Assembly: GCF_964204645.1 (NCBI RefSeq)
Contig: NC_134025.1
Location: 17,211,101 to 17,275,100 of the forward strand
Reading direction: 5' to 3'
DNA from: Tubulanus polymorphus
Lineage: Eukaryota > Animalia > Nemertea
Length of the DNA: 64,000 bases
Under the pieces are notes generated by a model. That model made no database searches, was not told the DNA's origin, and was given only the letters and a program-made list of their open reading frames with translations. Made by a program: the position numbers and the translations under genes. Positions 1 through 52,971 of the stretch are shown piece by piece (positions within the stretch are counted from its first letter, which is position 1; the number at the start of each line of letters is the position of its first letter).

Positions 1-100
1 TAATAAATTGAAGAATACACTAGATTATATAATAAGTTTGAATGGCCATATAACAGTTGAAGAACAAGATAAATTATTAAAAGAATTAATAAATTATTAA
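1..100 (+). CDS. 3' end of two-TM membrane protein (homolog of 21990..22424)
   Basis: Near-identical to 22325-22424 (NKLKNTLDYIISLNG..VEEQDKLLKELINY*). Confidence 0.85.
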   Translation, partial: NKLKNTLDYIISLNGHITVEEQDKLLKELINY

Positions 101-116
101 TTTTTTAATTATATAA

Positions 117-1505
117 ATGGTAGATAGTTTTCCAAAAGCTTTCCAATATAATAAATCAATTAAATATAATATTCCAGCAATAGATTTTAATAAAGATATT
201 ACATATAGAAATGAAGTTTTAGATTCATTAACTAATTTAGAAATTTATGTTACTGAAACTAATAATTTTAATGCAAAGATGGAAAATATATTTCATGTAT
301 ATTTAATTAATTTTAAGAAATTGAAAGATGAAAAACAATGGTTATTAAAATCTAATATGAAGTATTGGCAGAACCAATTAAATTTTGCTGTTTATTGTGC
401 AACAACAGGTTGTGGAATTAGTTGGAATGATCATTTGAATAATTCTAAATATAAATTAATTCAAAGTTTATTTAGATTTCATACATACTTTCAAATCAGA
501 ATAATATTAAATGAATTAGAGTGCGCTTTACCAGGATCTAGATATTTTAAAGAATTAGATAATAATATTAATTTATCAAAGTTTTATAAAATTTGTAATG
601 AATTTAATATAGATATAAATAATTCTGATTTTAGAACAAAAATTGGAACAATAAGATCACTTCCTTGCCCTAAAAAGATTGCAGAATATTGTGCACTTCC
701 CATACCATCTAATAGTTTTTATAATATCTATAGTAATAAATTAGGTTATGGTAAAATAGAAACAAAGGATTTAGAAACATTAAATTTCAATAAATTACCG
801 ACATTTTATGATAATTTAAAACAAGAAAACAATAATGGTTGGGTTTATTTCATTTTAGAAAATAATGAAGGTTTTACAAAATCAGGTATACAAAGAATAA
901 ATCAATCTATTAGAACTTATTTGATATGTATTTTAGGTGCGCAAGTTGAAACAAGATCCCCGATAATTGGAAATTTGAATACATCATTTGATACACAGAA
1001 ACAATTCAAAGTATTATTTGAAGATTCCATTCATAATGATAAAAATAGATCGATTCCAGAAAACATTGTAAGATATCAAAATTATTTAGATAAATCACAT
1101 ATTAGATTAAATTATTGTATAGGCCCTAATCTATTTATTATTTCCAATGATTTAGTATTAAAGATGGGAAATATAATTGGTTATAATAATCTAATTAAGA
1201 CTGCAACAATAAATAATAAGTTTGGATTAAATGATATAAATAAAAAGATTATTACTGCTCCAAAACTAATGGAAGGTGAAAAAATTAAAAAACACATTCA
1301 ATCAACAGAAACTAAAACTAAGAATATTAAATTAAATAATGATTCTAAAATAAAAGATTACAATACATCAGAAAATATTAAAACTGATAATATTCAACAT
1401 GATATAATTAAACTAAATGATGATAATAAATCCCATGAAAATACTAAATTAGCTATAACTTGTATAGGAATTGTAATCGGAGGAATATTATATTTTAAAT
1501 TTTAA
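117..1505 (+). CDS. Conserved element protein of unknown function (462 aa) with C-terminal TM anchor
   Basis: Intact ORF, TAAATG start, YCATTGCGISW motif, hydrophobic C-terminus; near-identical disrupted homolog at 22440. Confidence 0.8.
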   Translation: MVDSFPKAFQYNKSIKYNIPAIDFNKDITYRNEVLDSLTNLEIYVTETNNFNAKMENIFHVYLINFKKLKDEKQWLLKSNMKYWQNQLNFAVYCATTGCGISWNDHLNNSKYKLIQSLFRFHTYFQIRIILNELECALPGSRYFKELDNNINLSKFYKICNEFNIDINNSDFRTKIGTIRSLPCPKKIAEYCALPIPSNSFYNIYSNKLGYGKIETKDLETLNFNKLPTFYDNLKQENNNGWVYFILENNEGFTKSGIQRINQSIRTYLICILGAQVETRSPIIGNLNTSFDTQKQFKVLFEDSIHNDKNRSIPENIVRYQNYLDKSHIRLNYCIGPNLFIISNDLVLKMGNIIGYNNLIKTATINNKFGLNDINKKIITAPKLMEGEKIKKHIQSTETKTKNIKLNNDSKIKDYNTSENIKTDNIQHDIIKLNDDNKSHENTKLAITCIGIVIGGILYFKF

Positions 1506-1521
1506 TTTTTGTATTATGTAA

Positions 1522-3117
1522 ATGGCAGAAGGTGTGGAAGATATTGGAATGGATACTTTTGATAAACCCGGCATAACTGAAGAACAACCACCTGATTTTA
1601 GTGAAACAAGTTTTAATGATGATAATGAGCCAGAATATAATACTAATTTAGGTGAAGATGATGATTATGATGGAATTAATTCCGAATTACGTGAAAAATT
1701 AAATGAAATTAAAATTAAAATAACAGGTGTAGTTGTAAACGAAATATTGCCAAAAGATGTAATAGATGAAATTGGTTCAGAAGAAATTGTAAAACTAATT
1801 TTAAAAGATGATCCATTTTTCATGAATAATTTAGAATTTAAAAATGATGTGTGGTATTATAATCTTGAATTAAATGGTGAAAATGTAAAATTAAGATTAT
1901 CTAAAATGGGACAAGAAAGTATGTATGCACCTAAAATGTTAGCAAGATCTACAATTGAACATTCAAAAGGTGGTTCAGAATTTATCAGAATTATATGGAA
2001 TGCAATCGATAGAATAAATGAAGAAGAACCAATTCCTAAAATTGATATTAACAAATATTCACCATTTGAAAATCCAAATTTAAATCCTGATTTTGATCCA
2101 GAAATGGAAGAATATGGAGATCGATCAGATAGATTAAGATCTTCAACACCAGAAACATCGAGAAGAGATATTCAACAAATTGATAATGATTCAAGTCAAT
2201 TACAATTAGTAAAACATTTTGATAGCATGTTAGATACAATTCATTCATTTGAAGAAGAGATGAATAGTATTTTAGATACGCCCGGTACTGAAACTGGAAT
2301 AAATCGAATACAATCTTTACTTAAAAAAGGACTTCTTAAATTAACTGATGATGAATTGGAAGCATTTCCTGAACAATCACGTAGAGAAATTAAAGGTATT
2401 CAAGAATCAGCTGATAAAATTGTGCGTGATAAAAGTATAAGAGATTTTAAAATTAGAACTTTAGAAAAAGAATTAACTGATAAAAATGAAGAAATAGAAA
2501 AAACAAAATTAGATAGAGATAATAAAGTTATTGAAGAAATCGAATTTAAAAAAAGAAATGCATATTTAGAAAAAGAAAAATATGATTTAGAATATAACAT
2601 AGAATTACAAAAAGAAGAAATTAAATTATTATTAAAATCATATGATTATAATATTGATAGATTAAAAGATATTTTTAAAAGATATCTAATAAAACCAGAT
2701 TCTAGAATATCATTGAAAGATAGAATAAAATTATTATTTAAGTTTGAAGGAATAACAATTCTTTCAATTCTAACAGCTGTAACTATGTTATTTACAACAA
2801 TTGGTTTAGCAATATCAAATGCTTTAGAATCTACTCCTACTCCAAATAAACCAGATAAACCCCCAGATAATAATTCTATACAAGATAAAGTTAAGGATGG
2901 TTTAAAGAAATTAGCAAAATATTTTTGGGAACTATCTAAAAAATCTGCTGCAGCATTGCCAGGAATTATTGCATCAATTGTTGGTTTTATATTGAAATCT
3001 GCAGGAAACATTATTAACTTTGCTGCTGAACATATTATTTTATTTTTAATTACAGTTGTAAGTGCTATTATTTTTGGGCTAGTGAATATGATATCAAAAA
3101 ATATCAAGAAAAAATAA
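1522..3117 (+). CDS. Acidic/coiled-coil protein with several C-terminal hydrophobic helices (531 aa), putative virion membrane or entry protein
   Basis: Intact ORF; E/K-rich coiled coil followed by EGITILSILTAV... and later TM segments; homologs at 23842 and ~41404; lies directly upstream of the capsid gene in all three copies. Confidence 0.7.
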   Translation: MAEGVEDIGMDTFDKPGITEEQPPDFSETSFNDDNEPEYNTNLGEDDDYDGINSELREKLNEIKIKITGVVVNEILPKDVIDEIGSEEIVKLILKDDPFFMNNLEFKNDVWYYNLELNGENVKLRLSKMGQESMYAPKMLARSTIEHSKGGSEFIRIIWNAIDRINEEEPIPKIDINKYSPFENPNLNPDFDPEMEEYGDRSDRLRSSTPETSRRDIQQIDNDSSQLQLVKHFDSMLDTIHSFEEEMNSILDTPGTETGINRIQSLLKKGLLKLTDDELEAFPEQSRREIKGIQESADKIVRDKSIRDFKIRTLEKELTDKNEEIEKTKLDRDNKVIEEIEFKKRNAYLEKEKYDLEYNIELQKEEIKLLLKSYDYNIDRLKDIFKRYLIKPDSRISLKDRIKLLFKFEGITILSILTAVTMLFTTIGLAISNALESTPTPNKPDKPPDNNSIQDKVKDGLKKLAKYFWELSKKSAAALPGIIASIVGFILKSAGNIINFAAEHIILFLITVVSAIIFGLVNMISKNIKKK

Positions 3118-3167
3118 TAAAAAATAAACATGATAAAAAATAAATAATTAATTTTTTTGTTAAATAA

Positions 3168-3993
3168 ATGGGTGGGAGTTATATCAATCCTTCTAAGAAT
3201 CATAGAATATCTAATGCTATTAAAGCAGAAAGATCACATCATATAATTACTCATAACCCTTCTAATATTAATCCCGATGAAACTTTATATGTTAGAATTC
3301 CTCGATTAACACAAAATACTTTTTATGTTCCAAATAGTATTTATTTATCAGCTGATATAAAAGTAATCGGTTATAATAATAATTATGTTGTTGATAATGT
3401 TGGAAGATATTTGATTAAAAAATTAACTACAAAGATTGGACCAGAAACAGTTTTCTCATTAGATGATTATAATTTATTTATGCATTATAAAGATTTATGG
3501 TTAACTAAAGAAAATAGAAATAATATGATATTTCAAGGCATCCAATCAGAAAACCAAAATAAATTAAGATCAGAAGCTAATAGCGCAATATTAACTAAAT
3601 GTTGATAATTATTATAATCCTGAAATAACAAAAGTAGAAATAACTATCGAAGGAATAGCAAATAAAATATTTTGTCAAGGAATGAGAATGATAGATCAAT
3701 GGCCAGATATTAGAAAACATTTTATGAATGAAAAAGTAAAATCATCTGAAAATTGTAACATTAATCAAATTGATTATTATACCGGTAATAAATACGCATT
3801 ATGGTTAGATTTTAGAACAACGGAGGATAATTCATTACATGGTTCTGGAAAAAAACTACAGAACACTAAAGATGGAATACAATTATTCATGACAAAGAAT
3901 AAAGGAATCAAAAATTTTAAAATGCACATTTATATTATATCTGACGCGCAATTAAATATTGTAAATTCTCAATTAAATAGTGTTATGTATTAA
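3168..3993 (+). pseudogene. Major capsid protein (probable double jelly-roll) with internal deletion
   Basis: The two ORFs match the N- and C-terminal parts of 25302..26548; about 420 nt are missing at ~3597. Capsid identity inferred from size, position and C-terminal LHGSG..LQN..GIQL..YIISDAQLNI pattern. Confidence 0.65.
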
Positions 3994-4025
3994 AATTTTA
4001 ACTTTAATAAAAATTTATATAATAA

Positions 4026-4904
4026 ATGGAAGGAGGTAAAGTATATAAACATATTCCATACATCGATACACATGAAAATAATGATGGTTTATATTATGTA
4101 ATACCTTGTAATATAGCTTTGATATTTGATCCTATTTTCAAAATTTATAAAACTAAACTAAGTTAAATAGAGATCGATAATAATAAAAGTGGTGTTGTTG
4201 ATAATTTAAGTAATGTAATTGATAATAATGTAATACCTTCTAAATCTAATAATGTAATACCTACTACATCTAATAATGTAATACCTACTACATCTAATAA
4301 TGTAATACCTACTACATCTAATAATGTAATACCTTCTACATCTAATTATGTAATACCTTCTACATATAATAATGCAATAATATTAAATGTTAGTAAAAAT
4401 AGAAATTATTGTGATTATTGTAAAGGTGAATTTTCAAACGCTCCATCAAATTGGAATAAACATATGAATACAAATTCACATATTACTAATGTAATAGAAC
4501 GTGTTGGTTTAAAAGAATTTATAGAACATCCATTTAGATATGTTACAAAATTTGTTTCAAATAAAAAAGTAAATGGTAAAGAATTATATGAAGATTTTTT
4601 ATTAGCAACACCTAATAAAGATGAATTAGATTTAACTGATGCTAATGAAATATTAGGATCAAACACTGTAAATGAAATATTAGGAGCAAACACTAATAAA
4701 GATGATAATGAAAATACAGGAAAGCGCATTGATAATAAAGATTCTATGAAACTTAAATCAGAAAATAAAGATATAGTTGAGATGCCTAATAAGTATATCA
4801 ATAAACCAATTATTTATGAAGATACGGTAGAGCATTTGAATAAATTGTTAGGGTCTGATAGTGAAAGTGATTCAGAAATTAATTATCTAACACTCAAAAA
4901 GTAA
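4026..4904 (+). pseudogene. Zinc-finger protein with SNNVIPTT repeats, one in-frame stop (~4164)
   Basis: TAAATG at 4026 is in frame with ORF 4464..4904; reads CDYCKGEFSNAPSNWNKHMNTNSH (C2H2-like); 24-bp coding repeat at ~4220-4375. Confidence 0.65.
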
Positions 4905-4954
4905 TAAAGGTTAAAAATTGTATAAAATAATAGTAAATAAAAAAGGGGGTTTTA

Positions 4955-5300
4955 AGTATTAAGGTATTTAATACATATCTAATACGTATCTAATACGTAT
5001 CTAATATGTATCTAATACATATTATTTGAAAATACCTTAAATTATATTTCTTTTTTAAATTTATATTGAAACCTCAGTAATAATAAATAACCTTTATTAT
5101 TTTCAAACTTATTCATATATTTGTTGAAAAAATAAAAATAAATTGGTTGAAAATTGTATAAATAATATTTATTTCAAAAAAGGGGGTTTTAAGTATTTAA
5201 GGTATCTAATAGGGTATCAGGTATTAGGTGGTATCAGGTATTAGGGTATCTAATAGGATATCAGGTATTAGGGTATCTAATAGGGTATCTAATACATAGA
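4955..5300. repeat. Short tandem repeats (TATCTAATACG; GGTATCTAATAG/TCAGGTATTAG) between convergent gene blocks
   Basis: Two clusters, each preceded by AAAAAAGGGG(G)TTTTAAGTATT (~4940 and ~5176). Confidence 0.8.
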
Positions 5301-5311
5301 TATATAAATAG

Positions 5312-5922
5312 TTATTTTATAAACTTATATTCATATGGAAATTGTAGTCTCAGTAATAATTTTGAACCTTTATTATTCTTTAATTTATTCATATATTCAT
5401 CATGTAATGCAGTAGGTATAATTTGATTTTCTTCCAATGATTGTTGCATAGATTTTTTATCTTTGTTATAAAATAAAACTAGAAATCTAATGTTTTCTCT
5501 AAAGTCTTTAACAATTGAATTATATTTTTGATTTAAAACCCATGTTGTCTCCCAAAATGTCTCCCAGAGAAAGCTAAATAACATAACTCACTTTCTCTCA
5601 CTTTTGAATCATGTAAATTTGCGCAATCATCTATAATGAATAATGTATTTGATCCTTTATAAGTATCAATTGCTATTTTAATACAATTATCTAAATTTTC
5701 TTTTACTGTTTTAGGATCTACTATAATAAACTTTTTTATCTTAACTATATCTCTATTATATGTTTTATTCATTTCATAAGTAGGACAAAATAATATTATA
5801 TTATCAAAATGATTCTTATAAATAGTTTCTAACAAATCTAATATGAAATGTGTTTTACCACAATTGGTTACTCCAGTAACTAACATATTATGCGGTTCGA
5901 ATATAAATAAATCTTTATTCAT
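5312..5922 (-). pseudogene. Genome-packaging ATPase (A32/FtsK-HerA type), frameshifted
   Basis: Walker A GVTNCGKT, Walker B FIIDD, and GRH motif; the C-terminal part continues in ORF 5312..5584. Confidence 0.9.
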
Positions 5923-7006
5923 TTATTCTTTTAATTTTACTAGATAAAATCCATTCATTAAATTTATCATCGTATCCTTTATATTTCACCAAAGAATACT
6001 TTTTTCCTTTAAGAGTTTTTGTTTTCAATACTTTTTCTATTTTGTATTCTATTTCATCTGGATTTGGTGCAAGTGATAATTCTTGTTCATAGAAATAACC
6101 TAATATTTCTTCATCTTTTAGATCTTCTAGTTTATAAACAAAAGTTTTAGTTAATATTATCTTTTTAATCTTGAATATTTCTTCAGTAAAATTTGGGGTA
6201 TAACCTTTATAAAATTTTTTTCTATATTTAGATATTCTTACGTGTTGTCCAATTTTAAATTTTGGTTCACCGAAATCGTGTGTAACAAACGCTCCATATA
6301 AATTATTCCAAACTATTTCCGAATTATCTTCTTTTCTAGCTTGTATAGGTTTAATATTTATAGAACTATGTTTAGAATTATTATAACCTTTCACTAAATC
6401 ATCTAATACATCGATATATTTATATGTTTCATTAGCAGTAAAATATTTCCACATTCTAGTTTTCAATGTTTTATTAAATCTTTCTATAATAGATGCTTTT
6501 TTATCTGAATGTGTTGAAAAATAATCTACATCGTTATCAGATAATAGTTTTTTGAAATGTTTGTTATAAAATTCCTTACCTTCATCAAATTGTATCTTAT
6601 CTGGAATAGCTTCTTTAAATATCGATTTAAAAGCATTTGTAACTTCTATTCCAGTTTTATTTTTGATTGGAATTGACCATGGGTATCTACTGAATATATC
6701 TATAACATTTAATATCCAGAAATATCCTTTGTTGTATTCTTCTAAGTTCTTCATGTCAATTAAATCTGCTTGCCATTGTTGATCGATATATGAAACCATA
6801 ACTTTTCTTGTTAAATAAGTTTTATCCATTTTCTTTTGGATTTGATATGTTGGTTGATTTTGTAACCATGATTTTAATTCACCATATTTTATATTACCAT
6901 TTTCTTTATCAGATTTAATTTTATTCCATAATTCTGAAACGCTAGAATATGATACTTCACTTTCTGGGTTATAATATAAAGCTCTTGAATATTGTTCTTT
7001 TTTCAT
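5915..7006 (-). CDS. Polinton retroviral-like (rve) integrase with C-terminal chromodomain
   Basis: WQADLID, IDIFSRY, QFDEGKEF and ERFNKTLK DDE motifs; C-terminal YKIEKVLK..YSLVKYKGYDDKFNEW chromo-like segment; intact 363 aa. Confidence 0.93.
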   Translation of the reverse strand: MKKEQYSRALYYNPESEVSYSSVSELWNKIKSDKENGNIKYGELKSWLQNQPTYQIQKKMDKTYLTRKVMVSYIDQQWQADLIDMKNLEEYNKGYFWILNVIDIFSRYPWSIPIKNKTGIEVTNAFKSIFKEAIPDKIQFDEGKEFYNKHFKKLLSDNDVDYFSTHSDKKASIIERFNKTLKTRMWKYFTANETYKYIDVLDDLVKGYNNSKHSSINIKPIQARKEDNSEIVWNNLYGAFVTHDFGEPKFKIGQHVRISKYRKKFYKGYTPNFTEEIFKIKKIILTKTFVYKLEDLKDEEILGYFYEQELSLAPNPDEIEYKIEKVLKTKTLKGKKYSLVKYKGYDDKFNEWILSSKIKRINE

Positions 7007-7012
7007 CTTATT

Positions 7013-7381
7013 TTAATCCATTAATAATAATTTAGATTTAGTTTCAATGATTTTATCATTTGACTAATTTTCTGGTATAATAGGTTTATAATCATTGGAA
7101 TCATCTTTATCATCAGATTTGAATTTTGATTTATATATTACACCGGATAATATAATAATTGTGATTTACCCAATTGTAATATATAAGTAATTATTTCTTC
7201 CACTATTAGAAGAATTAAATGGATTGTTATTTGAATCAATATCAGATAATTTCTGTGATTCATTTATATCAGTTAATTTCTTTTTCTAAGCTTTTTTTAA
7301 TTCTGAAGATCTTTTACCTAATTCTCTTGCCCATTTAATTTGTTTCTCAGATCTAACCTTTTTCTTAACTCCATCACTCAT
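7013..7381 (-). pseudogene. Small basic protein with one TM helix (homolog of 29157..29525)
   Basis: TAAATG start; MSDGVKKKVRSEKQIKWARELGKRS matches KKKPRSQKQIEWSRQLGIKS in copies B/C; internal stops. Confidence 0.6.
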
Positions 7382-7976
7382 TTATTTTAGTTAATTTTTG
7401 TTCTGATTCATTTTCTGTTTCGACGTTTGGTTGTAGTACATCTGTTTCGTTCTTTCCTGATTTATATTCCATAGGCTTGATGTTCGAAAATGTTATGACG
7501 CCAGTAGAAATTAATGTCATAACCGATCCTAATTGAAATGAAGCATAACCAACCCATTTTTGTAATTCAGTCATAACTAAGTAGTCATTTTTCAAATCAC
7601 TATATAATTCATTTTCATCATTAATTGGTATTAACTGGTTACATAACTTAGAATAACATTTGACAATACCATCTGAAATAGAATCATTTATTCTAGCTAA
7701 TCTTGCCTCTTCATAAATCTTCAAATATTTTATTACTTTATCTGGTTTCATAGAGTCTAGTTCTTGAAAAGTAATGATTCTATTTAAAAACTCCTTAGTT
7801 TTTCCACCGGCAATCAATAGTTCTAGATGATGCTTACAATATAAATAGTATTCATAATCTATATTACAATTAACTTGAGCACAATTAGTTACAACCGTAT
7901 CTTTATTATCACTTATACCCAAATCATCTAATGTCTTTTCAATATCAATACTATTCTTACTCGATTTCTTTGACAT
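7374..7976 (-). CDS. Conserved element protein of unknown function (200 aa)
   Basis: Intact ORF; YEYYLYCKH..LLIA.G and LYSDLKNDYLVMTEL shared with 28620 and 52972. Confidence 0.75.
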   Translation of the reverse strand: MSKKSSKNSIDIEKTLDDLGISDNKDTVVTNCAQVNCNIDYEYYLYCKHHLELLIAGGKTKEFLNRIITFQELDSMKPDKVIKYLKIYEEARLARINDSISDGIVKCYSKLCNQLIPINDENELYSDLKNDYLVMTELQKWVGYASFQLGSVMTLISTGVITFSNIKPMEYKSGKNETDVLQPNVETENESEQKLTKINE

Positions 7977-8231
7977 TTATATTAGAGAAAAAAAGCAAAA
8001 AAATATTATAAGTATTATAAAATGATACTAGTATCTCTTTAGGTTAATACTAAATTGACTAGGTTAGTTAAAGGTAAAGAATTTTAGTATTAGTTATTGT
8101 TTTTTTAGTATTTTTTATTTGTGATATAAAGTATTCTTTTTTGAAAAGAAAATATTAAAAATATAATAGAATTCACTAGCTAGTTGAAGTTATTGTTTTT
8201 TTAATATTTTTTATTTAAAATCTATTATTCT

Positions 8232-8908
8232 TCAACCACTCAATAAAGATTCAACATATTGTTCATTATTTGGATCATTGTTCCATAATTCAATGAATTT
8301 CTTTGCTTTATCTAATTGATCCAAATATAACTGTAAATCTAGTTTATTAGATTAGATTTGATTTTCTTTCTTTTCTAAAGGCCTTAAATTCTTCCAACCC
8401 CAAATAAGTTTTTTATTGTATTCATCATTCATGTTAAATTTAGAAATCGGTAACACGTGATCAATATGAAAGTATTCACCATAATTATCTATATTCATTT
8501 TATCATCGAATTGAAATATAATCCATGATTTGAGAAATTCATCTGAACAACCCAACAAATTAGATAATGTTTCTGAATGTGTTTCTTTGTTGAATAATTG
8601 TGTTAATCTAGATCTTAAGCATTGTTTCACTTTAAAATCAAAATCTGTTTGATATCTTTCTCTCATATATTCTGCCATATAATAATTATAATGTTCTATA
8701 TTATCTTCTCGGTATTGTTTGGTATATAGTTTAAAACAATATTGAGTTTTACAACAATATTGAAAACCATCTTTGCTAATCTTACGCTTACTAAATTCTG
8801 TTAAAGCTACTTTATCTAATTCACACTTAGAACACTTCTTGTAATATATATTTATAACACACCAGTGTTATTTGTAATATTGATAATTTGTGGTTGTTCT
8901 GGTTCCAT
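8232..8908 (-). pseudogene. HNH endonuclease with N-terminal CxxC domain, resembling large-DNA-virus types
   Basis: TAAATG at 8908; KKCSKC..TEFSK..KDG..CK, then LGCS, NYGEYFHIDHVLPISKF, WKNLRPL..KEN; one frameshift near 8858 and an in-frame stop at 8352. Confidence 0.8.
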
Positions 8909-9049
8909 TTATTATATGTATTTTTTACTAAATTGGTTAATATTTTAGAATCCTCTTCCATTTCTTCGACCAACGTCATCCTTTTTCATTCCTCGCTGCT
9001 TTTGATAAATTGTTTCGATTCCTTGATATTTAAATCATACCAGTTACAA

Positions 9050-9760
9050 TATCCGCGCATTCAGGCCCGGTTTGGATCAATGCGCATGCGTTAATCATAA
9101 TTATATATTCATTCTGTAAATTCTGTAAAATAGAAACGACCGAACACAGAAAATATCTAAACGTGTTCGCATTAGGCAAACCGCGCATTCATGCGCGCTT
9201 TTGCTTAATGCGCATGCGTTAATCATAATTATATTTACATAATGAATATATAATTATGTAAATAGAAACGACCGACATGAAATATCTAAACGTGTTCGCA
9301 TTAGGCAAACCGCGCATTCATGCGCGCTTTTGCTTAATGCGCATGCGTTAATCATAATTATATTTACATAATGAATATATAATTATGTAAATAGAAACAA
9401 CCGACATGAAATATCTAAATCATACAACTGAGCAAACCGCGCATTCAGGCCCGGTTTTGCTCAATGCGCATGCGTTAATCATAATTATATATTCATTATG
9501 TAAATAGAAACGACCGACATGAAATATCTAAATCATACAACTGAGCAAACCGCGCATTCAGGCCCGGTTTTGCTCAATGCGCATGCGTTAATCATAATTA
9601 TATATTCATTATGTAAATAGAAACGACCGAACATGAAATATCTGAATCATACAACTGAGCAAACCGCGCATTCGTGCGCGGTTTTGCTCAATGCGCATGC
9701 GCTAATCCTAATTATATATTCATTCTGAATAGAAACGACCGAACATAAAAATTCACCAAA
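9050..9760. repeat. Tandem array of about 6 palindrome-containing units (113-129 bp)
   Basis: GCAAACCGCGCATTC recurs at ~9176, 9305, 9432, 9545 and 9659, each followed by its near reverse complement. Confidence 0.9.
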
Positions 9761-13267: not shown

Positions 13268-13510
13268 TGTGTGCTCAGAGTTTGTGCGCTGAACCTGTTT
13301 GTATTGTGTTTTGCATTTCTAAACTCTATGAACTTGTACAGTCTTTATTCTGAATCTCTCTTCCAGAACTATTTCTGTGCACTCTGCTGAGCACTGTTTT
13401 CACGCTACCCCCTCCGATTTGTATATAAACAATGTACTTGTAAATACATTTATTCCGAATACAACCACGGTAGAAGGCAGATAGTAGTTGTCTTCATATT
13501 CTGGGATCTA

Positions 13511-14937
13511 TTGAGTTGGCCGTCTTTACCCAACAATATATATATAAGCTCAAAACTAACTGACCATTATAGATCATGCATTATCACAACTGACCTATCA
13601 GACCATCTGCCCTGTTATATATCAATCAAAGATAGGAACTACAAAATGAAAACAAAGGAAACTAAATTATTCCGACGATTCAATCGAAGCAACTTAACCA
13701 ATATTAATAATGAACTCTCTGAAATTGATTGGGCTGTAATTGAAAACATAAACAGCGATGATGGGTATAGCTTTTTAATTGAAAAGCTCACTCAATCTTT
13801 AGATAGACATGCACCCCCGACTGAAACGAAAATTGGGCATATAAAGATAGACGAACCATGGATGACACATGGTCTACTAACATCGTCAAAAAAGTGTGAT
13901 CGTTTATATCGTAAGGTACTTGGTGCTCCAAAAAGTGATCCAAAATACGTAAGATATCTTAATTATCGAAATCAGTTGAATTATTTAAGAAGAAGAGCAA
14001 AGCATAGTTATTATGCGAATAAGATACTTAGTTTTAGAAATAACCGTAGAAAGTTATGTGATTTACTAAAGACCACCATAGGTAAACAAATCATCTACTA
14101 TTGAAAATCTAAAAATTGATGGAAAAATTGAAAAAGACCACAAAAAAATTAGTGACTCACTGTCTTTGTTTTTTAGTAATATAGGAAAAGAGTATGCCAC
14201 TAAAGTCCCAACATCTGAGCATTCATTTCAAGAATACCTCAATATCCATAACAATATTAACATTTTCTTTAGACCCACTGACACTAATGAGATCATTTCT
14301 TTAGTGAAATCATTACCAAATAAAAGTAGTACTGGTTTTAATAACATTAGCAATAATCTCCTAAAAGAAGTAATTTATACTATATGTGATCCGTTGTGTA
14401 CACTATTAACAATTCATTAAGAGATGGCGTAGTACCCAAATTAATGAACATTGCAGAAGTTATTCCTATCCACAAAGGTGATGATAAATCCCAAGCAACT
14501 AACTACAGGCCTATCTCACTTTTACCCGTAATATCTAAAATACTAGAAAAAATAGTTCACAACAGGCTATATAACTTTTTTATTACGAACAACTTACTCT
14601 ACAGCAGCCAATATGGGTACAGAGAAAATCATTCAACTGCTCAATCAATACTTGAATTAACCGGAAATATAATTAGTAGCTTCGACAATGGTAATAACAC
14701 AATTGGAGTCTTCCTTGATCTGTCTAAAGCGTTTGACTCGCTCGATATCCCAACGTTGATATACAAATTAGATAAGTATGGAATAAGAGGAATTCCATTG
14801 CAATGGTTGAAAAGTTACCTCAGTGAAAGGAGAATGTATGTAAAGGTCAACGGAATCAAATCAAATCTAACTTAAGTCGAATACGGAATTCCTCAAGGCT
14901 CTATACTCGGACCACTGCTTTTTCTTATATATGTTAA
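13511..14937 (+). mobile_element. CR1/L2-clade LINE fragment (endonuclease C-terminus plus RT N-terminal half), frameshifted
   Basis: TDLSDHLP, PWMT.GL, NYRPISLLPVISKILEK, FLDLSKAFD, GIPQGSILGPLLFLIYV. Confidence 0.92.
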
Positions 14938-15053
14938 GTTTTATGATTATAATATTCTGTAAATGGTTTACTTTTTTTACATTTGCAACATGTCTTCTGA
15001 TACATATTTACAACACCATTATTGTTTATATTGATAGTTTGTGTACTTTCCAT
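14935..15053 (-). pseudogene. N-terminal stub of a second HNH gene, truncated at the LINE junction
   Basis: TAAATG then MESTQTININNNGVVNMYQKTCCKCKKSKPFTEY, resembling the start of the gene at 8908 (MEPEQPQIINITNNTG..IYYKKCSKC..TEF). Confidence 0.6.
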
Positions 15054-15082
15054 TTATGATACATATTTTTATTAAAATCTGA

Positions 15083-16064
15083 TTAACACGTTATAATCCT
15101 GTTCATTATTTCCTTTTCTTTTGTTTCTTCTCTTTTAAATTTTAGATGTTCTCCTAAATTGCAACCATAAGCAACTGTGTGTATACCATCATCCAGAATA
15201 TACCTTTTATCGTCAAATGAATTTAGACTAGCCTTTTCAATTTCTTCAATAAACGTCTCGTGGTGCTCAGATCTTAAACATTTCATCTTATGTTTTGTAA
15301 CTTCTTCATTCAATATACAATTGATGTAATCTTTGAAATGAATATTCTTTTCAACAACGCTTTTGGTTATTCGATTCAATTTCTTTGATTCATGAGTTTT
15401 AGTTTTATATGAATACATTTTAGATCTAATACCTATGAACTCTATCATTCCTTCATCTCCTAATTCATCTTTGAATTTACCGGGCACCTTTTTATTATCA
15501 TTGTCAAACAATTCATGATCTTTTGGATAATTACTAAAGTCGAAATGATGTTTTAATGTTTTTAAATCATCTGTTATATTATTAGTTTTAATCTTTAATA
15601 TGTAAGAATCGGTATCAAAATATAAGATTTCTATATGCTTTTCTCCAAAATGAGGTAGTAATACGTTATAGTAAAATTCATACATTAGTAATTTTGATAT
15701 TTCTATTTTTTATGTTTGCTGAAGCACCAACATAAATTGGTTTATTAAATTTCATAGAAGTTCTCCTCATTTTAACTGCAGCTAAATTGTCATCAAATAT
15801 TCTGTTACCGATAAATTTAGGATATGTTTGTAAATGTCTAATTCTTTTACCATTGCTAACTAACTCAATATCATTTCCATTTCTAATATTTTCACAAGTC
15901 TTACCATAGAATGCATTATTCATTAGTTTGAAGAAATCTTTCTCGAAATCAGTTTTAGCTTTAGTTCTCTGTTTGGTGTTAAAATCTATATATTTTTCCA
16001 ACCATTTAGATTGGCTGAATGAAATATATCTATGTACTTTTTTTTTAATCATTCCTTGATTCAA
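15083..16064 (-). pseudogene. polB: Protein-primed family B DNA polymerase, C-terminal fragment, intein-free
   Basis: KLMNNAFYGK, ILYFDTDSY, GKFKDE, RSKMYS, FDDKRY; two ORFs joined by a small lesion. Confidence 0.93.
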
Positions 16065-16079
16065 ATAAAATTAAAATTG

Positions 16080-18767
16080 TTCTTAATGTAACAGAATTAT
16101 TAAAAGATCAATTTTATGATCAATTAAAAGAGGAGTATGTGAAAGACGAAGTGTTTAATAGAACATTAAATATTTGGAACCATTTTAAGATGAAAAATCA
16201 TGGTGAATTAGTTGATTTATATTTAAAATCAGATGTTATGATATTGGCTGACATATTTGAAAAATTTAGAGAAGTTAATTTGAATCATTTTAATGTTGAT
16301 CCTTGTTATTGCTACTCTAGTCCTGGTTTAACCTGGCAATGTGGTTTAAAATATACAAATGTAGAATTAGATTTATTAAAAGAACCAGATATGGTTTTAT
16401 TATTTGAAAAATCAATTAGAGGTGGAATTAGTGGTGTTATGGGAGATAGGTATTTTAAAGCAAATGATGAATATAAATTATTATATATTGACGCCAATAA
16501 TTTATATGGTTGGGCAATGATGCAACCTCAACCATACAAAATTTTTATATTAACAGAAGTTGAAAATGATGATAAAACTGATTGGGAAAGCGCAATTGCG
16601 AGTTTAAAAGATGAAGCACCAATTGGTTATTTCTTTGTAGTTGATTTAGAATATCCTGAAAATATAAAGTTTAAAACAAGAAACTTACCTTATTGCCCAG
16701 AACATTTAACTGTAGATGATAGTTATTTAAGTGAATACCAGAAGAAAATAAAACCGAAAGATCATGTTTTTACAGAAAAATTAATACTTACTCAAAATAA
16801 TAAATACAATTATATTGTTCATTGTAGAATGTTAAAATTTTATCTAAAACAAGGAATGAAATTAAAGAAAGTACATAGATATATCGAATTTAATCAATCG
16901 AAGTGGTTAGAAAAATATATAGATTTCAATACTCAACAGAGAACCATATCAGATTTTGAAAAAGATTTCTTCAAATTAATGAATAATAGTTTTTATGGTA
17001 AAACATGTGAAAATATTAGAAATAGAAATGATATTGAATTAGTAAATAATTCTGAACGATTAAGACATTTACAATCAAGTCCTAGACATTTAGGAAATAA
17101 AAGATTTGAAGATTATTTAACAGCGGTTAAATTAAGAAGAACGTCAATGAAATTTAATAAACCTATATTCATTGGTTCAACTGTTTTAGAAGTATCAAAA
17201 TTATTAATGTATGATTTTTATTATAATGTTTTACAACCATTTTTCGGGGAAAAGCATATTGAAATATTATATTTTGATTCTGTAACAGCTGACACCCCAA
17301 TATTATTAAAATGTAATGATAAAATATTGATAAGAAGAATTTCAGAAATAATTCCAAAACAAAATGAATGTTATATTTTATATGGTGAAAAAGAATTAAT
17401 ACAAATAAATGGATTAATGGATGTTTGGACAAGAAATGGATGGAAAAAATTAAAGAATATTATTAGGCATAAAACAAATAAGAAAATCAATAGAGTTAGA
17501 ACTAAATTAGGATTTGTTGATGTTACAGAAGATCATAGTTTAATTAAACGAAATGGCAATGAAATAAAACCAACTGATATAAAAATTGGAGATGAATTAT
17601 TACATAAAAGATTTTTCCAGAGATGAATCATATGTCATTTGATGAAATAATTGATAATATTTATAATGTAGAACCCGAAACATTAGAAGAAAAAGAATAT
17701 CTTATCAAAGGATTTTTCAAGGGTGATGGTTCAGCAGGTGTGTATAATTATGTTTGGGGTAATAAATATTGTTGGTATTTATGTAATCAAGACTTAAAAT
17801 TATTAGAAAGAATTAAGAAATTCTGTGAAGTTTATTCACATAAAACATTTAGAATCATGGATGTTATGAAATCATCAGCAGTTTATAGAATACTTGTAAA
17901 TAATCCTAAAGATTTTGCTATAAAATATAATGATGAATTCTATATTCATGCAATAGTTAAAAGTAATACTTCAACTAAAGAAAAGATAGTACCAGATTAT
18001 GTATTAAATGCAAAAAAATAATTTAAGAAAGTGGTTCTTCATTGGATTCTATGCCGCAGATGGCACTAAAAAATTTACAAAGGATAAAAAGATAACCTTT
18101 GCACAGAAAGGAAAAGTTGCTATATCAGGGTTAAATATATTATGCATTTCATTAGGATTTAATATGAATATAGAATTAATTAAATCTAAAGCAAATTGTT
18201 TTAATTTAAGGCATGTAGAAAAAGATTTAACTGAAGAAGTTAAAGATTTATTTGAAATATATAACCCAACTGACTATGTTTATGATTTATCAACAGATGA
18301 TGGAACATTCAATTCTGGGTTCCCATTAATCCAAAAAAATACCGATGCGTACATACTAAAAATCGAGACAAATGACATAACAAAAGACTTAAAAACATTA
18401 AAACATCATTTTGATTTTAGCAATTATCCCAAAGATCATGAACTATTTAGCAATGATAATAAAAAGATTCCTGGTAAATTTAAAGATGAATTAGGGGGTG
18501 ATGAAATGATTGAATTTGTTGGGATAAGAAGTAAAATGTATAGTTATAGAACAAAAGATCATGAAGCTAAAAAGTTAAAAGGAATAACAAAACATGTGGT
18601 TGATAAACTTATATAAATCAATTGTAATGAAACATAAAATGAATTGTTTAAGATCAGAAGATCACGAGATGTACATTAATGAAGTTGAAAAAACTAGTTT
18701 GAATCCATTTGATGATAAAAGGCATATTTTAGATGATGGTATAAAAACATTACCTTATGGCCATTAA
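16080..18767 (+). pseudogene. polB: Protein-primed family B DNA polymerase (5'-truncated) containing an intein
   Basis: YLKSDVMILADIFE (exo III), RGGIS, YIDANNLYGWAM (motif A), KLMNNSFYGK (motif B), split motif C YFD/TDAY, GKFKDE, and FDDKRHILDDGIKTLPYGH* ending at 18767. Confidence 0.95.
17279..18340 (+). mobile_element. Intein with LAGLIDADG homing endonuclease, inserted in PolB motif C
   Basis: Block A SVTADTPILL, block B VDVTEDHSL, block C LIKGFFKGDGS, block E FFIGFYAADGT, block F YVYDLSTDDGTF, block G LIQKN followed by Thr; absent from the homologous site at ~15605-15620. Confidence 0.95.
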
Positions 18768-18841
18768 AACAGAAAATCAATATCATCATACTCGAAATCA
18801 CTATTGGCTTCTTCATTTTCATTTAATTGTTCTTGTATAAT

Positions 18842-20094
18842 TTATTTAGGTTCTTCCATTTCAATTTTCTCATTTAAATAAAGTTCTATCTTGTACCACA
18901 TTTCATTTCGCTCTCTTTGTTTCTTTTTGTTTGTTAATTCATCAAATGGAATTATAATATCTATGTTTAAATAATTTACAATCTTATTTAAAAAGAATTC
19001 ATAATTAATTGAATCTGTTATTCTATTTTCCAAATGATACATTAATATTTGTTTGAATGTTTTTTTTATATTTTCCATATCTTCTTCTGTTAACTTTGGT
19101 TTTTCATAATAATCGTTAAAAAATAAATATAAATACATTTTCTTTTGTTTTGTGATAAATGTTGATGGAATAATTGTTTTTATAATATCTTTTTTAGTTA
19201 TTTCACCATTTTTATTTTCTATTATTTTCATTTTTTCAAGCCATTGCTTATATTCTGGTGTATGATCTTCTATAGAAAATATTTTAAACATTTCATCAAG
19301 ATAATTTAAGTTTGGTTCTATGAGAAAATCTCTAGTTTTTTCTTCACCCCATAAATTCTTTTGCCATCCACATTCATTACAAAATAACAAAGTACCTTCT
19401 TGCCTAAAGGTCGCATAACTACATTGTGGACATTTTCGTTTATAATTTATTAGTAATAGATCTTCATTAAGCTCCTGGTATTTTTTCTTACGTTTTCTTT
19501 ATGTTTTATTGTTCTATTATGTAGATTTTAATTACTTGTTGTAATAATCAATTTACAATATTTACAATAATATGTTTTTCTTGTTAATTCATTATATTGT
19601 TTATCTAACTTTTCAACTGTTTCTTTATTATCTGGTAACGTTTTCTCATATTTTATTTTTTCTAATATATTATTTTTTCTTTCATTGAATTCTGCTTCAA
19701 ATTTATTAGAAATTTTATCTATATGTGCTTTACGAAATTGATGATTCTCCCAATCTTCTATATTTTCAGGGCTATATTTTATTCGACAAGGCTCACAGAA
19801 ATGATCTTTTATATTATCCTTATCATAGAATAAGAAAGGTCTTTTCCAAATAATTTCTGGTTCAACTTCAACAGAATTACTATTACTTTCGTTACTATCA
19901 ATATTAGCCGTTGCGCCATTAATTTTACACTTCTCTGAATGTTTTTTAACATAATTTCTTGAGAATAATTTATCACATTTTGGACAGTTTAGTTTAGGGG
20001 GTTTATAATTTTCATCATGTTTTTTCATATGTCGAACCATATTACTTTTTCTTAGAAGTTCACCACAAATTTCACATGCTATCTTCTCATCCAT
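18842..20094 (-). pseudogene. Multi-zinc-finger protein (one gene broken by a stop at 19528 and a frameshift at ~19485)
   Basis: CEICG..MVRHMKKH, CPKC..KKH..KC, CEPC..H..H, CKYC..HNRTIKH and CPQC..CNECG; TAAATG start. Confidence 0.75.
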
Positions 20095-25301: not shown

Positions 25302-26548
25302 ATGAGTGGGAGTTATATAAGTCCTTCTAAGATTTCTAGAATATCTAATGCTATTTAAGCAGAAAGATCACATCATATAATTACTCATAATCCTTCAAAT
25401 ATTAATCCCGATGAAACTTTATTTGTTAGAATTCCTAGATTAACACAAAATACTTTTTATGTTCCAAATAGTATTTATTTATCAGCCGATATAAAAGTAA
25501 CTGGTCATGATAATAATTATGTTGTCGATAATGTTGGGAGATATTTGATTAAAAAATTAAGTATAAAGATCGGTCCAGAAACAGTTTTCTCATTAGATGA
25601 TTATAATTTATTTATGCATTATAAAGATTTATGGTTAACTAAAGAAAATAGAAAATTATGATATTTCAAGGTATTCAATCGGAAAACCATAATAAATTAA
25701 GATCAGGAGCTAATGACGCAATAGTAACTCGTGCCGCAGATAATTTGATTAAAAAGATTTATGGAAGCAAATATAAAATTCCATTAGACTTTGAATTGAT
25801 AAATAATAATGCACCTTTATATAAATATGTAATTCAAGAAGATATTATATTTGAGATAACATTTGCTCCTGTAAATGAAATTGTATTATCTAGCGTTGTT
25901 AAAGATATGGTATATAAATTATCGAATATATGTTTAGAATATGACACAGTAACTAATGAAAATATTGCTAGCACAATTCAAACTCAATACAATCAAGGAT
26001 TTTTATTATTATATGATTATATTGATAAATTTAAAACTGTAACTATTATTGCAAATGATGAAATAATTAATGAGAATATTAACTTCCCAAGAAGATCTGT
26101 TAAAGGTATATTAATATTTTTTACCATTGCAACATATTCTAATGGCGCAATAAATGTTGATAATTATTATAATCCTGAAATAACGAAAGCAGAAATAACT
26201 ATCGAAGGAATAGCAAATAAAATATTTTGGCAAGGAATGAGAATGATTGATCAATGGCCAGAAAATAGAAAACATTTTATGAATGACAAAGTAAAATCAT
26301 TTGAAAATTGTAATATTAATCAAATTGATTATTATACCGGCAATAAATATGCATTATGGTTTGATTTCAGAACAACAGAGGATAATTAATTACATGGTTC
26401 TGGAAAAAAACTACAGAACACTAAAGATGGAATACAATTATTCATGAAAAAGAAAAAAGGAAGCTTAAATTATAAAATGCACATTTATATTATATCTGAC
26501 GCACAATTAAATATTGTAAATTCACAATTAGATAGTATTCAATATTAG
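25302..26548 (+). pseudogene. Major capsid protein, full length (~415 codons) with stops and a frameshift
   Basis: Collinear with the copy A and copy C fragments; beta-rich character; sits between the membrane genes and the integrase. Fold not verified. Confidence 0.7.
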
Positions 26549-26578
26549 AAATATAAAGTTAAAATTAACGATATATAA

Positions 26579-27705
26579 ATGGGTGGTAAAAAAACTCCTA
26601 ATACTAAAGAACAATATTTAAGAAATTTATATTACAACCCTGAGAGTTCGGTTGCTTATTCTTCTAACAAAAATATATGGCGTCAAGTAAAACAAGATAA
26701 ATTAGATAGGATAATCCCACAAAATTTAGTTAAATATAAAGATATAAATGAATTCATGTTAGAACAACCAACATACACAACACATAAAAAAATTGTTAGA
26801 AAATATAAAACTCGTAAAACTATGGTAAGTTATGTAGATCAACAGTGGCAAGGAGATTTATTGATATGAAAAATGTTAAGAAAGATAATAATGATTATTG
26901 GTGGTTATTGAATATAATTGATATTTTTAGTCGTTATGTATGGAGTTTCCCACTTTATAGAAAAGATGCTGTACAAACATCAAATGTTTTAAGAAAATTT
27001 CTTTTGGATGATAAACTAAAACCAGAAAAAATACAATTTGATGATGGAAAAGAGTTTGATAATTCACTTGTTCATGAACTCTTGGATAATCATAATATTA
27101 AATATTTTTCAACAAAATCGGATAAAAAAGCAGCAGTTGTTGAACGATTTAATAGAACATTAAGAACAAGAATGTGGAAATACTTTACAGCAAATAATAC
27201 TTTTAAATGGATTGATGTTTTACCAAAATTGATAGAAGGATATAATAATTCTTATCATTCTTCTATTGGAATGAAACTTATTGATGCTAGAAAACCTGAA
27301 AATGCTGAAATTGTTTGGAATAATTTATATGGAGCATTTCTTGTAGATGATTTTGGTGAACCTAAATTTAAAGTTGGTCAAAATGTTAGAATTTCTAAGT
27401 ATAAAAAGATATTTGACAAAGGATACGATCGAAATTTTACTAGAGAAATATATAAAATAAAAAAGGTAATAACAACAAAACCATATGTCTATAAATTAGA
27501 AGATTTAGATGGTGAAGAAGTTGATGGCTACTTTTACGAAGAAGAATTAAGTTTAACTACTGAAAATCTAGAACAAGAATATAAAATTGAAAAAGTATTA
27601 AAAACAAAAACTGTTAAAAGAAAAAAATATTCTTTAGTAAAATGGGTTGGATGGCCAGATAAATTCAATGAATGGATATTATCAAGTAAAATTAAAAATA
27701 TATAA
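26579..27705 (+). pseudogene. rve integrase with chromodomain, one frameshift at ~26860
   Basis: WQGDL/IDM, IDIFSRY, QFDDGKEF, ERFNRTLR, LVKWVGWPDKFNEW. Confidence 0.93.
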
Positions 27706-28314
27706 ATGAATAAGGAATTATTTATATTTGAGCCTCATAATATGTTAATTTCTGGTGTAACAAATTGTGGAAAAACTTATTTTATATTAAATTTATTAGA
27801 AACTGTTTATGAAAACTATTTTGATAATATAGTATTATTTTGTCCAACATATGAATTTAATCAAACTTATGATAGAAATATTACTAGAAATAATAAATTT
27901 ATTATATTAGATCCTAAAACAGTAAAAGACAATTTAGATAATTGTATTAAAATAGCAATAGATATTTATAAAGGATCAAATACATTATTCATTATAGATG
28001 ATTGTGCAAATTTACATGATTCAAAAATTAGAGAGAGTGAGTTATGTTATTTAGCTTTTTCTGGTAGACATTTTGGGATAACAACTTGGGTTTTAAATCA
28101 AAAATATAATTCAATTGTTTAAGACTTTAGAGAAAACATTAGATTTCTAGTTTTATTCTACAATAAAGATAGAAAATCGATGAAAAATGCACTTGAGGAA
28201 AATGATATTATTCCACATGATTTACATAATGAATATATGGATAAGTTGAAAAATATTAAAAGATCAAAATTACTATTTAGATAACAACACCCATTTAAAT
28301 ATGAATTTATTTAA
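27706..28314 (+). pseudogene. Packaging ATPase with in-frame stops
   Basis: GVTNCGKT, FIIDD, SGRHFGIT; homology continues past the stop at 28122. Confidence 0.9.
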
Positions 28315-29662: not shown

Positions 29663-31103
29663 TTAATCAACAATTTCTAAATCATGATGACCGTCTTCAT
29701 TTTTTCCATGATAGATTATTTTAAATCCTTCTAAATCTTTTAATTCCTCTATACTCAATGAAACCCATTTATCAGGTAAAAATACTTTAAATTCTCGCGA
29801 TGTACTAACATTGCAGTAGCTTAAATTAGCTGATACTGATATAACAAAGCGACAGTTTATGACATTTTTTCTCACATTGTATCATGTTTTATCTATCATA
29901 TATTCCCATTTATCAGATTTTGTAATCGATTATATAATAATGAAATTGATTTTATAGTGGATGTACCGAGTTTTATATCCATCAAAATGTGGATATTCGT
30001 TGTCTGGGAACAATAACAGTTCAGTATTTTGATAGTTAAGTATTTCGAAACTTTTCCCGTGGGCAGCAACACAATGTTGTTATCTGCTGCTAACGAAATC
30101 CAGGAGGTCAGTCATCTGGCCTCCATTAAGCTGCTTTAAGATGTGTGTAAACATCCTCTGCCCTCTCTGCCGAAAATAGTCCTCGTATGCAATTTTGTTA
30201 TAACTGTTTCATATCAAAGCGACAACTTAGAATTTTGACCAGGCAACGAGTATCCACCAATTATCTTTAACCAGTTTTTGTTTTTGACCAATCAGAAGAA
30301 TTGGGGTTGGGTGAGATCGGGACCCAAGATCGGTCTTGGGTCACATTTGCCTTCTACGATTCGAGAAATAAACAGCTTTAGCTTTGGAATTATACACTAT
30401 CATACTATAACTACGGATATTGTTACATTATATATTTTAAAGGTAAGAAGACTTTGTTTTTAAATCTATCAATTTTGAAGATAACTGAATTGACATTGAT
30501 AATTGTGAAGTCATATTATTCATAGTGGATTATGATTGAAATATTAGAGAGAAGAATATATCAGTCAGAGTTGAGCACACGCCGCTCTACCTTAAGTTGG
30601 CTAAAAGTCTATGATGCTTACTAGCTCACGTCCGCTAGTTGGTCAAGACCGATCTGAATTAAGATTAACGTATATAACGAATGTTAGTTTCATTACTACG
30701 ATTATAATAGAAAGAGATAAAATGACTGTAGTGTCGCAAATAGTTGCATGAATATCTATATGTATATCAAACAATTACTACTATCATATGAAATATTGTA
30801 ACACATTTGCCTTCCACGATTCGAGAAATAAACAGCTTTAGCTTTGGAATTATACACTATCATACTATAACTACGGATATTGTTACATTATATATTTTAA
30901 AGGTACCGAGCTTAGTTCCCCGAGCACCGGCTTTCGTTAGGGTGCTATACTTTCTCTCCATATTTAGTTTTTATCTTTTCTAATTTCAATATTTTATGTT
31001 CAATTTCTTTTGTAACATCAACTAACTTTTTTATTTCAAATTGTTTTTTTGCTGGTTTTATTCTGTTATTTATTGTTGCTAAGAATGCTTTTCTATCTCC
31101 CAT
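29663..31103 (-). pseudogene. Small protein (~108 aa, possible OB-fold/ssDNA-binding) split by a 1.1-kb insertion
   Basis: Rejoined it reads MGDRKAF..KIKTKYGEKV|SANL..FKVFLPDKW..IIYHGK; uninterrupted but frameshifted copy at 55299..55626. The function is a guess. Confidence 0.65.
29838..30946. mobile_element. Unclassified non-coding insertion with ATACT on both flanks
   Basis: Absent from copy C (~55470); internal ~100-bp direct repeat (30342 and 30802); 3' hairpin AGCACC...GGTGCT. Confidence 0.75.
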
Positions 31104-42511: not shown

Positions 42512-42531
42512 TTAATTTTTTTGTTAAATAA

Positions 42532-43323: not shown

Positions 43324-43394
43324 GCTGCAAAGCAGCGATAACGGGTTTTCTGCACAGTCTTTGAATCCTGTTCAATGGTTAACACAGTAGGCGA

Positions 43395-51240: not shown

Positions 51241-51247
51241 AAAGGTT

Positions 51248-52769: not shown

Positions 52770-52971
52770 ACTCAACTAGCTTGTTAATCTAGTATATTTT
52801 AGTCAAATTCTAGTCAAATCTTAGTTATTAGTAGTTGAAACAAAAATCAAATAAATTTCAACAAGAAATAAATAAAAACAATAATATTTCGACTAGCTTG
52901 TTAATCTAGTATATTTTTAGTTACATTCCAGATAAATTCTAGTTGCAACAGCACAGTTTTTTGTTATATAA

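Follow-up and report, generated by a model that had tools for sequence, protein, structure and literature searches.

A pol-c-type intein in the protein-primed polymerase of a Polinton from the Tubulanus polymorphus genome, with indirect signs of homing among its relatives

How does a predicted self-splicing protein insert come to sit in the DNA polymerase of a transposable element in an animal genome, and does the uninterrupted polymerase copy beside it tell how the insert moves? The question arises from a stretch of 64,000 nucleotides (nt) of the nemertean Tubulanus polymorphus (contig NC_134025.1, positions 17,211,101 to 17,275,100; hereafter the window), where two pieces of the polymerase gene polB of Polinton-like elements lie back to back, one of them occupied by an intein. 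Inteins are predicted self-splicing protein inserts otherwise known from microbes and giant viruses. The original prediction had taken the pair for empty and occupied alleles, the condition for homing, and had raised the possibility that the endonuclease of the intein caused the break between them.

On the plus strand, the polymerase reads HIEILYFD up to 17,278, is interrupted by an insert of 1,062 nt (17,279-18,340) and resumes with TDAYILKIETN from 18,341. The minus-strand copy reads HIEILYFD-TDSYILKIKTN without interruption, with its empty site between 15,614 and 15,613. Both junction readings are thus present as predicted, and the insertion point is the exact meeting place of the two blastn blocks between the copies (76% and 74% nucleotide identity). 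We use family 1 (plus strand, occupied) and family 2 (minus strand, empty) as working names for these sequences, which are ~75% identical. Family 1 comprises an N-extein (16,083-17,278, plus strand), 5′-truncated at a breakpoint given by 204 loose read ends and within what we take, from general knowledge of the motif, to be the exonuclease region, and a C-extein (18,341-18,767, plus strand; placed by frames, blastn, and reads), which begins with Thr+1 and has a deletion near 18,615. Two frame breaks lie inside the intein (near 17,620 and 18,010), and the intein-bearing copy in the window is dead. Family 2 is represented by the 3′ third of the gene (15,083-16,070, minus strand; PF03175 at 23.5 bits, cut-off 25.8), with a frame break near 15,710. 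Both copies are 5′-truncated and point away from one joint.

The main new result that our analysis suggests is a complete pol-c intein clade in the protein-primed polymerases of Polintons, here in an animal genome, for which the signs of homing are indirect. One capture, then a homing cycle within the circle of relatives and, rarely, a long jump, appears to fit the sequences best. We put at roughly 70% the probability that a pol-c-type intein in the protein-primed PolB of a multi-copy Polinton was captured once from a giant-virus-type PolB and persists by repeated homing. Homing of this lineage seems to be supported by relatives outside the window, not by the window pair.

Judged by its motifs, the insert is a canonical pol-c-type intein of 354 codons with a LAGLIDADG-type endonuclease domain (17,279-18,340, plus strand, as are its parts; profile TIGR01445, alignment, and motifs). 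The N-terminal Hint region (17,279-17,620) contains block A (SVTADTPI) and block B (FVDVTEDHSL), and the first piece of the intein matches the Hint profile TIGR01445 with 31 bits (cut-off 24.5). Two dodecapeptide-type motifs, each ending in an acidic residue, follow at intein positions 143 (IKGFFKGDGS, 17,704-17,733) and 254 (FIGFYAADGT, 18,038-18,067). The first recurs in P0001, P0007, P0157, P0241, and P0268, where P-numbers denote relatives from protein searches of 50%-representatives. The Pfam profile LAGLIDADG_3 (PF14528) reaches 15.5 bits in the window piece, below its cut-off of 22.5, and 30.1 bits in P0001; it exceeds the cut-off in P0001, P0007, P0157, and P0241. PF14890 gives just 14 bits for the window intein piece and 37.7 bits for P0157 (cut-off 35.8). 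The N-terminal piece matches solved inteins weakly (e.g., PI-PkoII, E=0.017), and its single-sequence fold was uninformative (predicted local distance difference test, pLDDT, 45). With X placed at the two frame breaks, the window intein spans 354 amino acids (aa) and over this whole length shares 62% identity with its intact counterpart in P0001.

The splice residues are Ser1, block B VDVTEDH with its Thr-x-x-His pattern, a terminal Asn (KN), and Thr+1. The original prediction of a true intein is therefore borne out by the splicing motifs together with TIGR01445 above its cut-off, and the empty copy fixes the site to the base. The penultimate residue counts against so canonical a reading, being Lys instead of His, which is usual, not universal. 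It is Lys in the window and P0007, Ser in P0001, and His in P0157, P0241, and P0268; K-N ends are common among the viral-type rows. The insertion site is PolB motif C, YFD/TD (the slash marks the insertion point), shared with Mimivirus YGD/TDS and with the RNA-primed PolB matches. Removal of the insert restores the host motif, and no gap is found at the site in the empty copy and in 106 of 120 relatives. Since the intein splits a catalytic motif, any active copy must splice in host cells. The guanine-plus-cytosine content is alike in intein and extein (0.24-0.27), with no sign of recent arrival from a foreign genome. As for the host, the window polymerase is 57% identical to P0001, a protein-primed PolB that has PF03175 at 62 bits.

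Mimivirus PolB carries a 351-aa intein at YGD/TDS (Ogata et al. 2005, PMC549080). Our intein, at 354 aa, resembles it and the archaeal pol-c inteins in the motif C site (Y-x-D/T-D), Ser1, terminal Asn, Thr+1, block B Thr/His, and dodecapeptide endonuclease. In contrast to their RNA-primed hosts, the host in the window is the protein-primed PolB of an integrated Polinton, and the site reads YFD/TDA. DNA polymerase is the commonest viral intein host (67 inteins; Phycodnaviridae, Iridoviridae, Mimiviridae, and unclassified viruses), viral spread has been proposed, and nuclear inteins are described from fungi, algae, amoebozoans, and choanoflagellates (Green et al. 2018, PMC5784728). Unlike the window case, no Polinton or animal nuclear intein was found in the text of that census examined. 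Nuclear inteins of Anaeramoeba were gained from Nucleocytoviricota and spread within the genome (Gallot-Lavallee et al. 2023, PMC10710043), but their host is unicellular and the interrupted genes are cellular; the words polinton, maverick, animal, and metazoa are absent from the main text of that report.

On the Polinton side, pPolB holds HNH and VSR nuclease insertions (Jeong et al. 2023, PMC10748475; Krupovic et al. 2024, PMC11071308). Like these, the window intein is a selfish nuclease domain inside a Polinton polymerase. However, the HNH and VSR insertions are fused, with no splicing domain described, whereas the window holds a complete Hint and LAGLIDADG intein interrupting a catalytic motif. 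The word intein is absent from the main text of PMC10748475. Our finding lends direct support to the suggestion that intein invasions brought nucleases into Polinton polymerases (Krupovic et al. 2024, PMC11071308). In the texts searched, we met no account of an intein with a Hint domain either in the polymerase of a Polinton or in the nuclear genome of an animal; the supplements (those of PMC5784728 and the 1,331 pPolB2 sequences of PMC10748475), Repbase, InBase, and subscription journals lay outside this search. A complete Hint and LAGLIDADG intein in a multi-copy element of an animal genome widens the range of inteins.

Near-identical exteins with a conversion tract are expected of a homing pair, and the two window copies show neither. 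The flanking protein had been called very similar. The site motif is indeed the same; the exteins are just 74 to 76% identical in nucleotides and 73 to 81% in protein over the blastn blocks (78% over 235 columns). At such nucleotide identity, "alleles" is therefore the wrong word, and by their sequences the pair are two families. Furthermore, the family-2 piece is 85% identical to P0138 as against 78% to its family-1 neighbor, and it groups with P0138-P0140 (support 98), polymerases from other samples. A conversion tract, which the original prediction had proposed to look for, was not found by codon comparison around the site: synonymous differences occur in 9 of 24 codons at most 15 codons from it and in 54 of 156 elsewhere. 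With synonymous divergence no lower near the site, and with occupancy tracking family in the raw reads, the claim of polymorphic alleles enabling homing is not supported for this pair.

We compared read runs X1-X3 and X5 with the window; X6-X10 share next to none of its words. Run X5, from another individual and about 12% read, has a depth of 224 to 324 over the upstream extein and 188 to 231 over 17,218-17,987. The two frame breaks of the window intein are not shared by 169 of 203 and 120 of 163 X5 reads. Among 15 listed joints (of 22) in X5, there is no precise skip of the intein and no link from a family-2 site to it. These observations suggest that family 1 is multi-copy, mostly occupied, and mostly open-framed at the two break places, and that family 2 looks empty. 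Such families, with occupied and empty members, would make the homing cycle testable inside single genomes. In X1, the contig depth of the Polinton relative to a neighboring contig of a long interspersed nuclear element (LINE) over 15,000-19,000 is about 21- to 35-fold, and about 3- to 10-fold in X2 and X3. The excess in X1 could reflect the number of copies, the type of library, or extrachromosomal amplification; the depth of contigs is a poor measure.

The same run X5 also speaks against a clean division of this kind. Its depth falls, without explanation, to 100 to 118 over 17,988-18,295; an in-frame skip of the intein, between family-1-like flanks, is seen in two reads; and five listed joints, with 27 reads in all, pass from one family to the other at homologous places (15,720/17,183; 16,043-45/16,859; 15,343-65/18,588-92). 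The division between the families may therefore be less than clean. Two of the switch places adjoin private indels of the window copies, and for the switches an alignment effect or a third family is just as probable an explanation as recombination.

These reads bear on the view that the intein is actively homing between the two families of this genome, the joint being a by-product of the endonuclease cut. We consider it very unlikely. The two families do share 28 of 30 bases upstream of the site, a few reads switch family ~95 nt upstream and ~250 nt downstream of it, and there are the two in-frame skips. Yet only 22 of 30 bases match downstream, the synonymous divergence shows no dip, the switches adjoin private indels of the window copy and may be alignment effects, and no listed joint connects a family-2 site to the intein. 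The empty site is also intact and lies 457 nt from the break.

The evidence for our preferred reading, one capture followed by repeated homing, comes from the relatives. Among the 120 best extein matches, 5 are occupied, 106 empty, and 9 unscored. P0001, P0157, and P0241 carry the intein whole, P0147 and P0191 are cut off inside it, and the three nearest extein relatives (71 to 73%) are all empty. A search with the P0001 intein added the occupied P0268. A query made of the intein end and the extein frame, run against all 50%-representatives, brought up additional occupied polymerases, all of them partial, among the best 150 of 4,513 matches, namely P0396 (76%), P0397, P0399, and P0481; because they are fragments, the trees do not include them. 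With the window polymerase as query, the viral scan returned 3 loci at 38 to 39%, which were set aside, and neither the metagenome scan with P0001 nor the viral scan with P0157 returned any.

As to the source of the intein, the 120 listed matches of its N-terminal piece include two with a protein-primed PolB domain, most having RNA-primed PolB and a few topoisomerase II. In IMG/VR, 14 of the 16 loci checked (18 found) have the intein after Y-G-D or V-G-D, and three intein loci carry giant-virus names of metagenome-assembled genomes. The inteins of protein-primed PolB fall on one side of a branch in the intein tree (7 of 130 rows, support 93; 6 of 36 rows, 100/100), from which 23 of 226 rows without a pattern match and 74 outside 300 to 430 aa were excluded. 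An intein clade common to giant-virus-type and protein-primed PolB implies that DNA has been exchanged between the two, a point relevant to the question of a viral life of Polintons beside giant viruses. Among the same searches, related inteins were seen in type II topoisomerases at D/T-D-like sites (TDQD/.../TDG; P0002, P0026, P0029, P0041, P0067, P0071, and P0099). P0002 holds two, the same intein group being found at a non-allelic acidic motif. At L016:10001 and L017:10001, a related intein follows SLSKH, not Y-G-D, in a further host protein of large viral contigs.

The P0157 cluster (136 members, 15 listed) offers the closest comparison of occupied and empty sites. As its contigs measure 57 to 1,018 kb, the members are likely integrated. 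Seven full-length members are occupied and five empty, with 94 to 99% extein identity, and all 10 fixed differences between the two states fall in 60 columns around the site, with none in the 1,131 others; they span 7 residues before to 44 after the intein. The flank LHCHYMD of P0157 is also present in the occupied P0191 (77% extein identity) and in none of 97 empty rows with a readable flank. A longer jump may be represented by P0007, whose intein is 46% identical to that of the window and sister to window plus P0001 (96/84), although its extein had no phmmer match to the 130 extein rows.

Could the intein instead have entered once in the distant past and descended vertically, with many precise losses and with homing ended? 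Intein and extein identities do run parallel within the main group (62/58, 48/48, 62/61, and 76/80%), and the pairings of window with P0001, P0157 with P0147, and P0241 with P0268 are alike on the intein and extein sides, in trees or in identity tables. With the exception of P0007, the two trees also match in their large-scale shape, as old inheritance with many losses would have it. On the extein tree of 130 rows, the 8 occupied rows need 7 changes, a number as low as in 77 of 500 shuffles, and a single gain would require 28 precise losses. The original prediction had named one intein-positive clade with a congruent extein history as the outcome that would speak against homing; an approximately unbiased (AU) test gave p=7e-7 against one occupied extein clade (27 rows, chosen by us). 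Old inheritance is further opposed by the nested intein of P0007, which sits in a polymerase without detectable extein similarity, and by the confinement of the fixed differences of the P0157 cluster to the surroundings of the site. Moreover, in the Goddard-Burt cycle, the endonuclease decays when homing ceases (PMC7765530). None of the six full-length inteins compared has lost either endonuclease motif, whereas decay without homing would erode both. We therefore regard vertical descent as unlikely.

Besides the parallel identities and trees, other facts weigh against one capture with repeated homing. P0007 is a long branch. The 60-column window of the P0157 cluster was drawn after seeing the data, and its seven near-identical occupied copies amount to about one event. 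Moreover, the direction from giant virus to Polinton comes from an unrooted tree of similarity-chosen matches, most of whose hosts are labeled by Pfam only.

A bolder account would have Polintons carry a live homing intein in the animal germline, one that crossed from giant-virus PolB into protein-primed polymerases, jumps between Polinton classes, swept one family, and is at present entering the second, with the reads that switch family marking its conversion tracts. As a whole we hold this account to be doubtful and offer it tentatively. If true, an animal nucleus would harbor a self-splicing gene drive that homes, and the intein would record that Polintons and giant viruses have shared cells.

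Under one capture and repeated homing, which we prefer, an intact precursor would splice by means of Ser1, the block B His, the terminal Asn, and Thr+1, rebuilding the D-T-D active-site motif. Loss of splicing would kill the polymerase; therefore, selection would preserve the Hint domain. Empty sites in closely related copies sharing the nucleus would be targets of the endonuclease, and their repair on the template of an occupied copy would transfer the intein with some flank. In this genome, the intein appears to be nearly fixed in family 1, whereas family 2 seems to lack it; the family-2 site, differing at 2 of 30 upstream and 8 of 30 downstream bases, probably has too many changes for good cutting. 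Among the clustered, decayed elements, a break was likely closed by end joining, in the course of which a short insert was templated by snap-back; this would have fused a 1.1-kb inverted family-2 piece to a 5′-deleted family-1 copy. The back-to-back layout is likely incidental.

The joint itself agrees with such mending. X5 reads of other copies depart from the window sequence at 16,070 (146 reads) and 16,083 (204 reads), and these loose ends fix the breakpoints. The original prediction of two 5′-truncated copies diverging from ~16,070-16,080, with a rearrangement fusing two elements inside polB, is thus confirmed. The filler of the joint (16,071-16,084), as identified from the loose ends and control 13-mers, contains at 16,072-16,084 an inverted copy (12 of 13 positions) of 16,104-16,116. 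Such an inverted copy within 50 nt was found for 4 of 3,510 control 13-mers, and the true chance is somewhat higher, several filler lengths having been tried. Inserts templated in this way are typical products of end joining by polymerase theta or of template switching. Had homing made the cut, it would lie at the empty site, which is intact and 457 nt from the joint (the occupied site is 1,196 nt away), and the endonuclease is therefore unlikely as the cause of the joint. Judging from these sequences, the joint was likely made by ordinary repair. Furthermore, the family-2 piece is bordered on its left by a LINE fragment (13,391-14,937, plus strand; RVT_1 at 71 bits) cut inside the reverse transcriptase, its frame ending in FLIYVK, and read contigs stop matching the window at 14,937. 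The region was therefore rearranged more than once.

Whether the joint exists in the DNA has to be weighed as well, since an assembly chimera of two repeat families would remove the back-to-back layout while leaving the intein finding intact. In its favor, and to that extent against our reading of the joint, of 3,572 pieces, the 24 listed include no read across 16,070-16,083, and the best read runs contain just 37 to 45% of the words of this stretch. However, the two sides are inverted and joined at non-homologous positions, and the 12-nt filler is foreign to both families and an inverted copy of sequence 20 nt away. Moreover, X1-X3 probably lack the window copy, because many private letters of the window are missing from them. 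We judge a chimera to be decidedly unlikely.

The window contains three decayed Polinton-like elements with an rve-chromo integrase and an A32-like ATPase, surrounded by the LINE fragment and other transposon remains. The family-1 integrase (rve and chromo) and A32-like packaging ATPase (26,579-28,310, plus strand; identified by Pfam) are 92% identical to those of the third element. The block is 76% identical to the minus-strand block at 5,319-6,895, within the left-element integrase and ATPase (5,312-7,012, minus strand; Pfam), whose divergence from family 1 matches that of the empty polB piece. Pfam scores above the cut-off are 33.9 and 37.3 bits for rve and 44.1 and 34.7 bits for Pox_A32. 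The left-element block possibly belongs to family 2 as well, its divergence (~75%) equaling the distance between the two polB pieces; its link to the empty polB piece is by inference. A likely major capsid gene, broken, lies at 25,311-26,582 (plus strand) in the family-1 element. It was a lead from ESM Atlas (score 0.97, with Capsid_NCLDV in 13 to 18% of some clusters and a low recognition value), and the capsid-like gene is repeated in all three elements. No Pfam match to an adenoviral-type protease was found among the 33 window frames scanned, nor did we find in the window a pair of terminal repeats or an end with AG repeats; the plus-strand element has lost its left end.

With their rve-chromo integrase, A32-like ATPase, capsid-like gene, and weak-PF03175 PolB, these elements resemble the Beta adintovirus/pPolB2 Polintons (Starrett et al. 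2021, PMC8502044) and may belong to that class. The weak PF03175 score and the absence of a phmmer match to the strongly PF03175-positive P0007 are compatible with that class. In the text of PMC8502044 examined, intein has 0 occurrences.

The middle and right elements are 85 to 94% alike. In the left element (1-8,900), the structural genes are 85 to 94% like family 1, with an inverted integrase-ATPase block that is ~75% alike and another gene order. The change comes where the capsid-like gene ends (about 4,029), as in a module-swapped Polinton. The left element also has a free-standing HNH-like frame (8,352-8,867, minus strand; HNH_4, E=0.037), a possible second selfish nuclease, and past its last gene, at 9,026-9,750, lies an array of about six copies of 113- to 129-nt units. 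A 1.1-kb insertion is found near the right end of the middle element (29,838-30,942), and the third element (41,408-55,660) is split by several kilobases of other transposon sequence. Outside the elements, one uninterrupted frame of 408 codons (58,922-60,148) encodes a mitochondrial enoyl reductase (MECR-like) and could be an intronless gene or an intact retrocopy; a plasmid search with the host gene yielded nothing further. In keeping with an animal host, the frame matches mitochondrial enoyl reductases at 1e-107, including chain 1zsy, which we take to be the human enzyme, and the next group, presumably yeast enzymes, at 1e-69; its nearest Atlas clusters are mostly arthropod or chordate.

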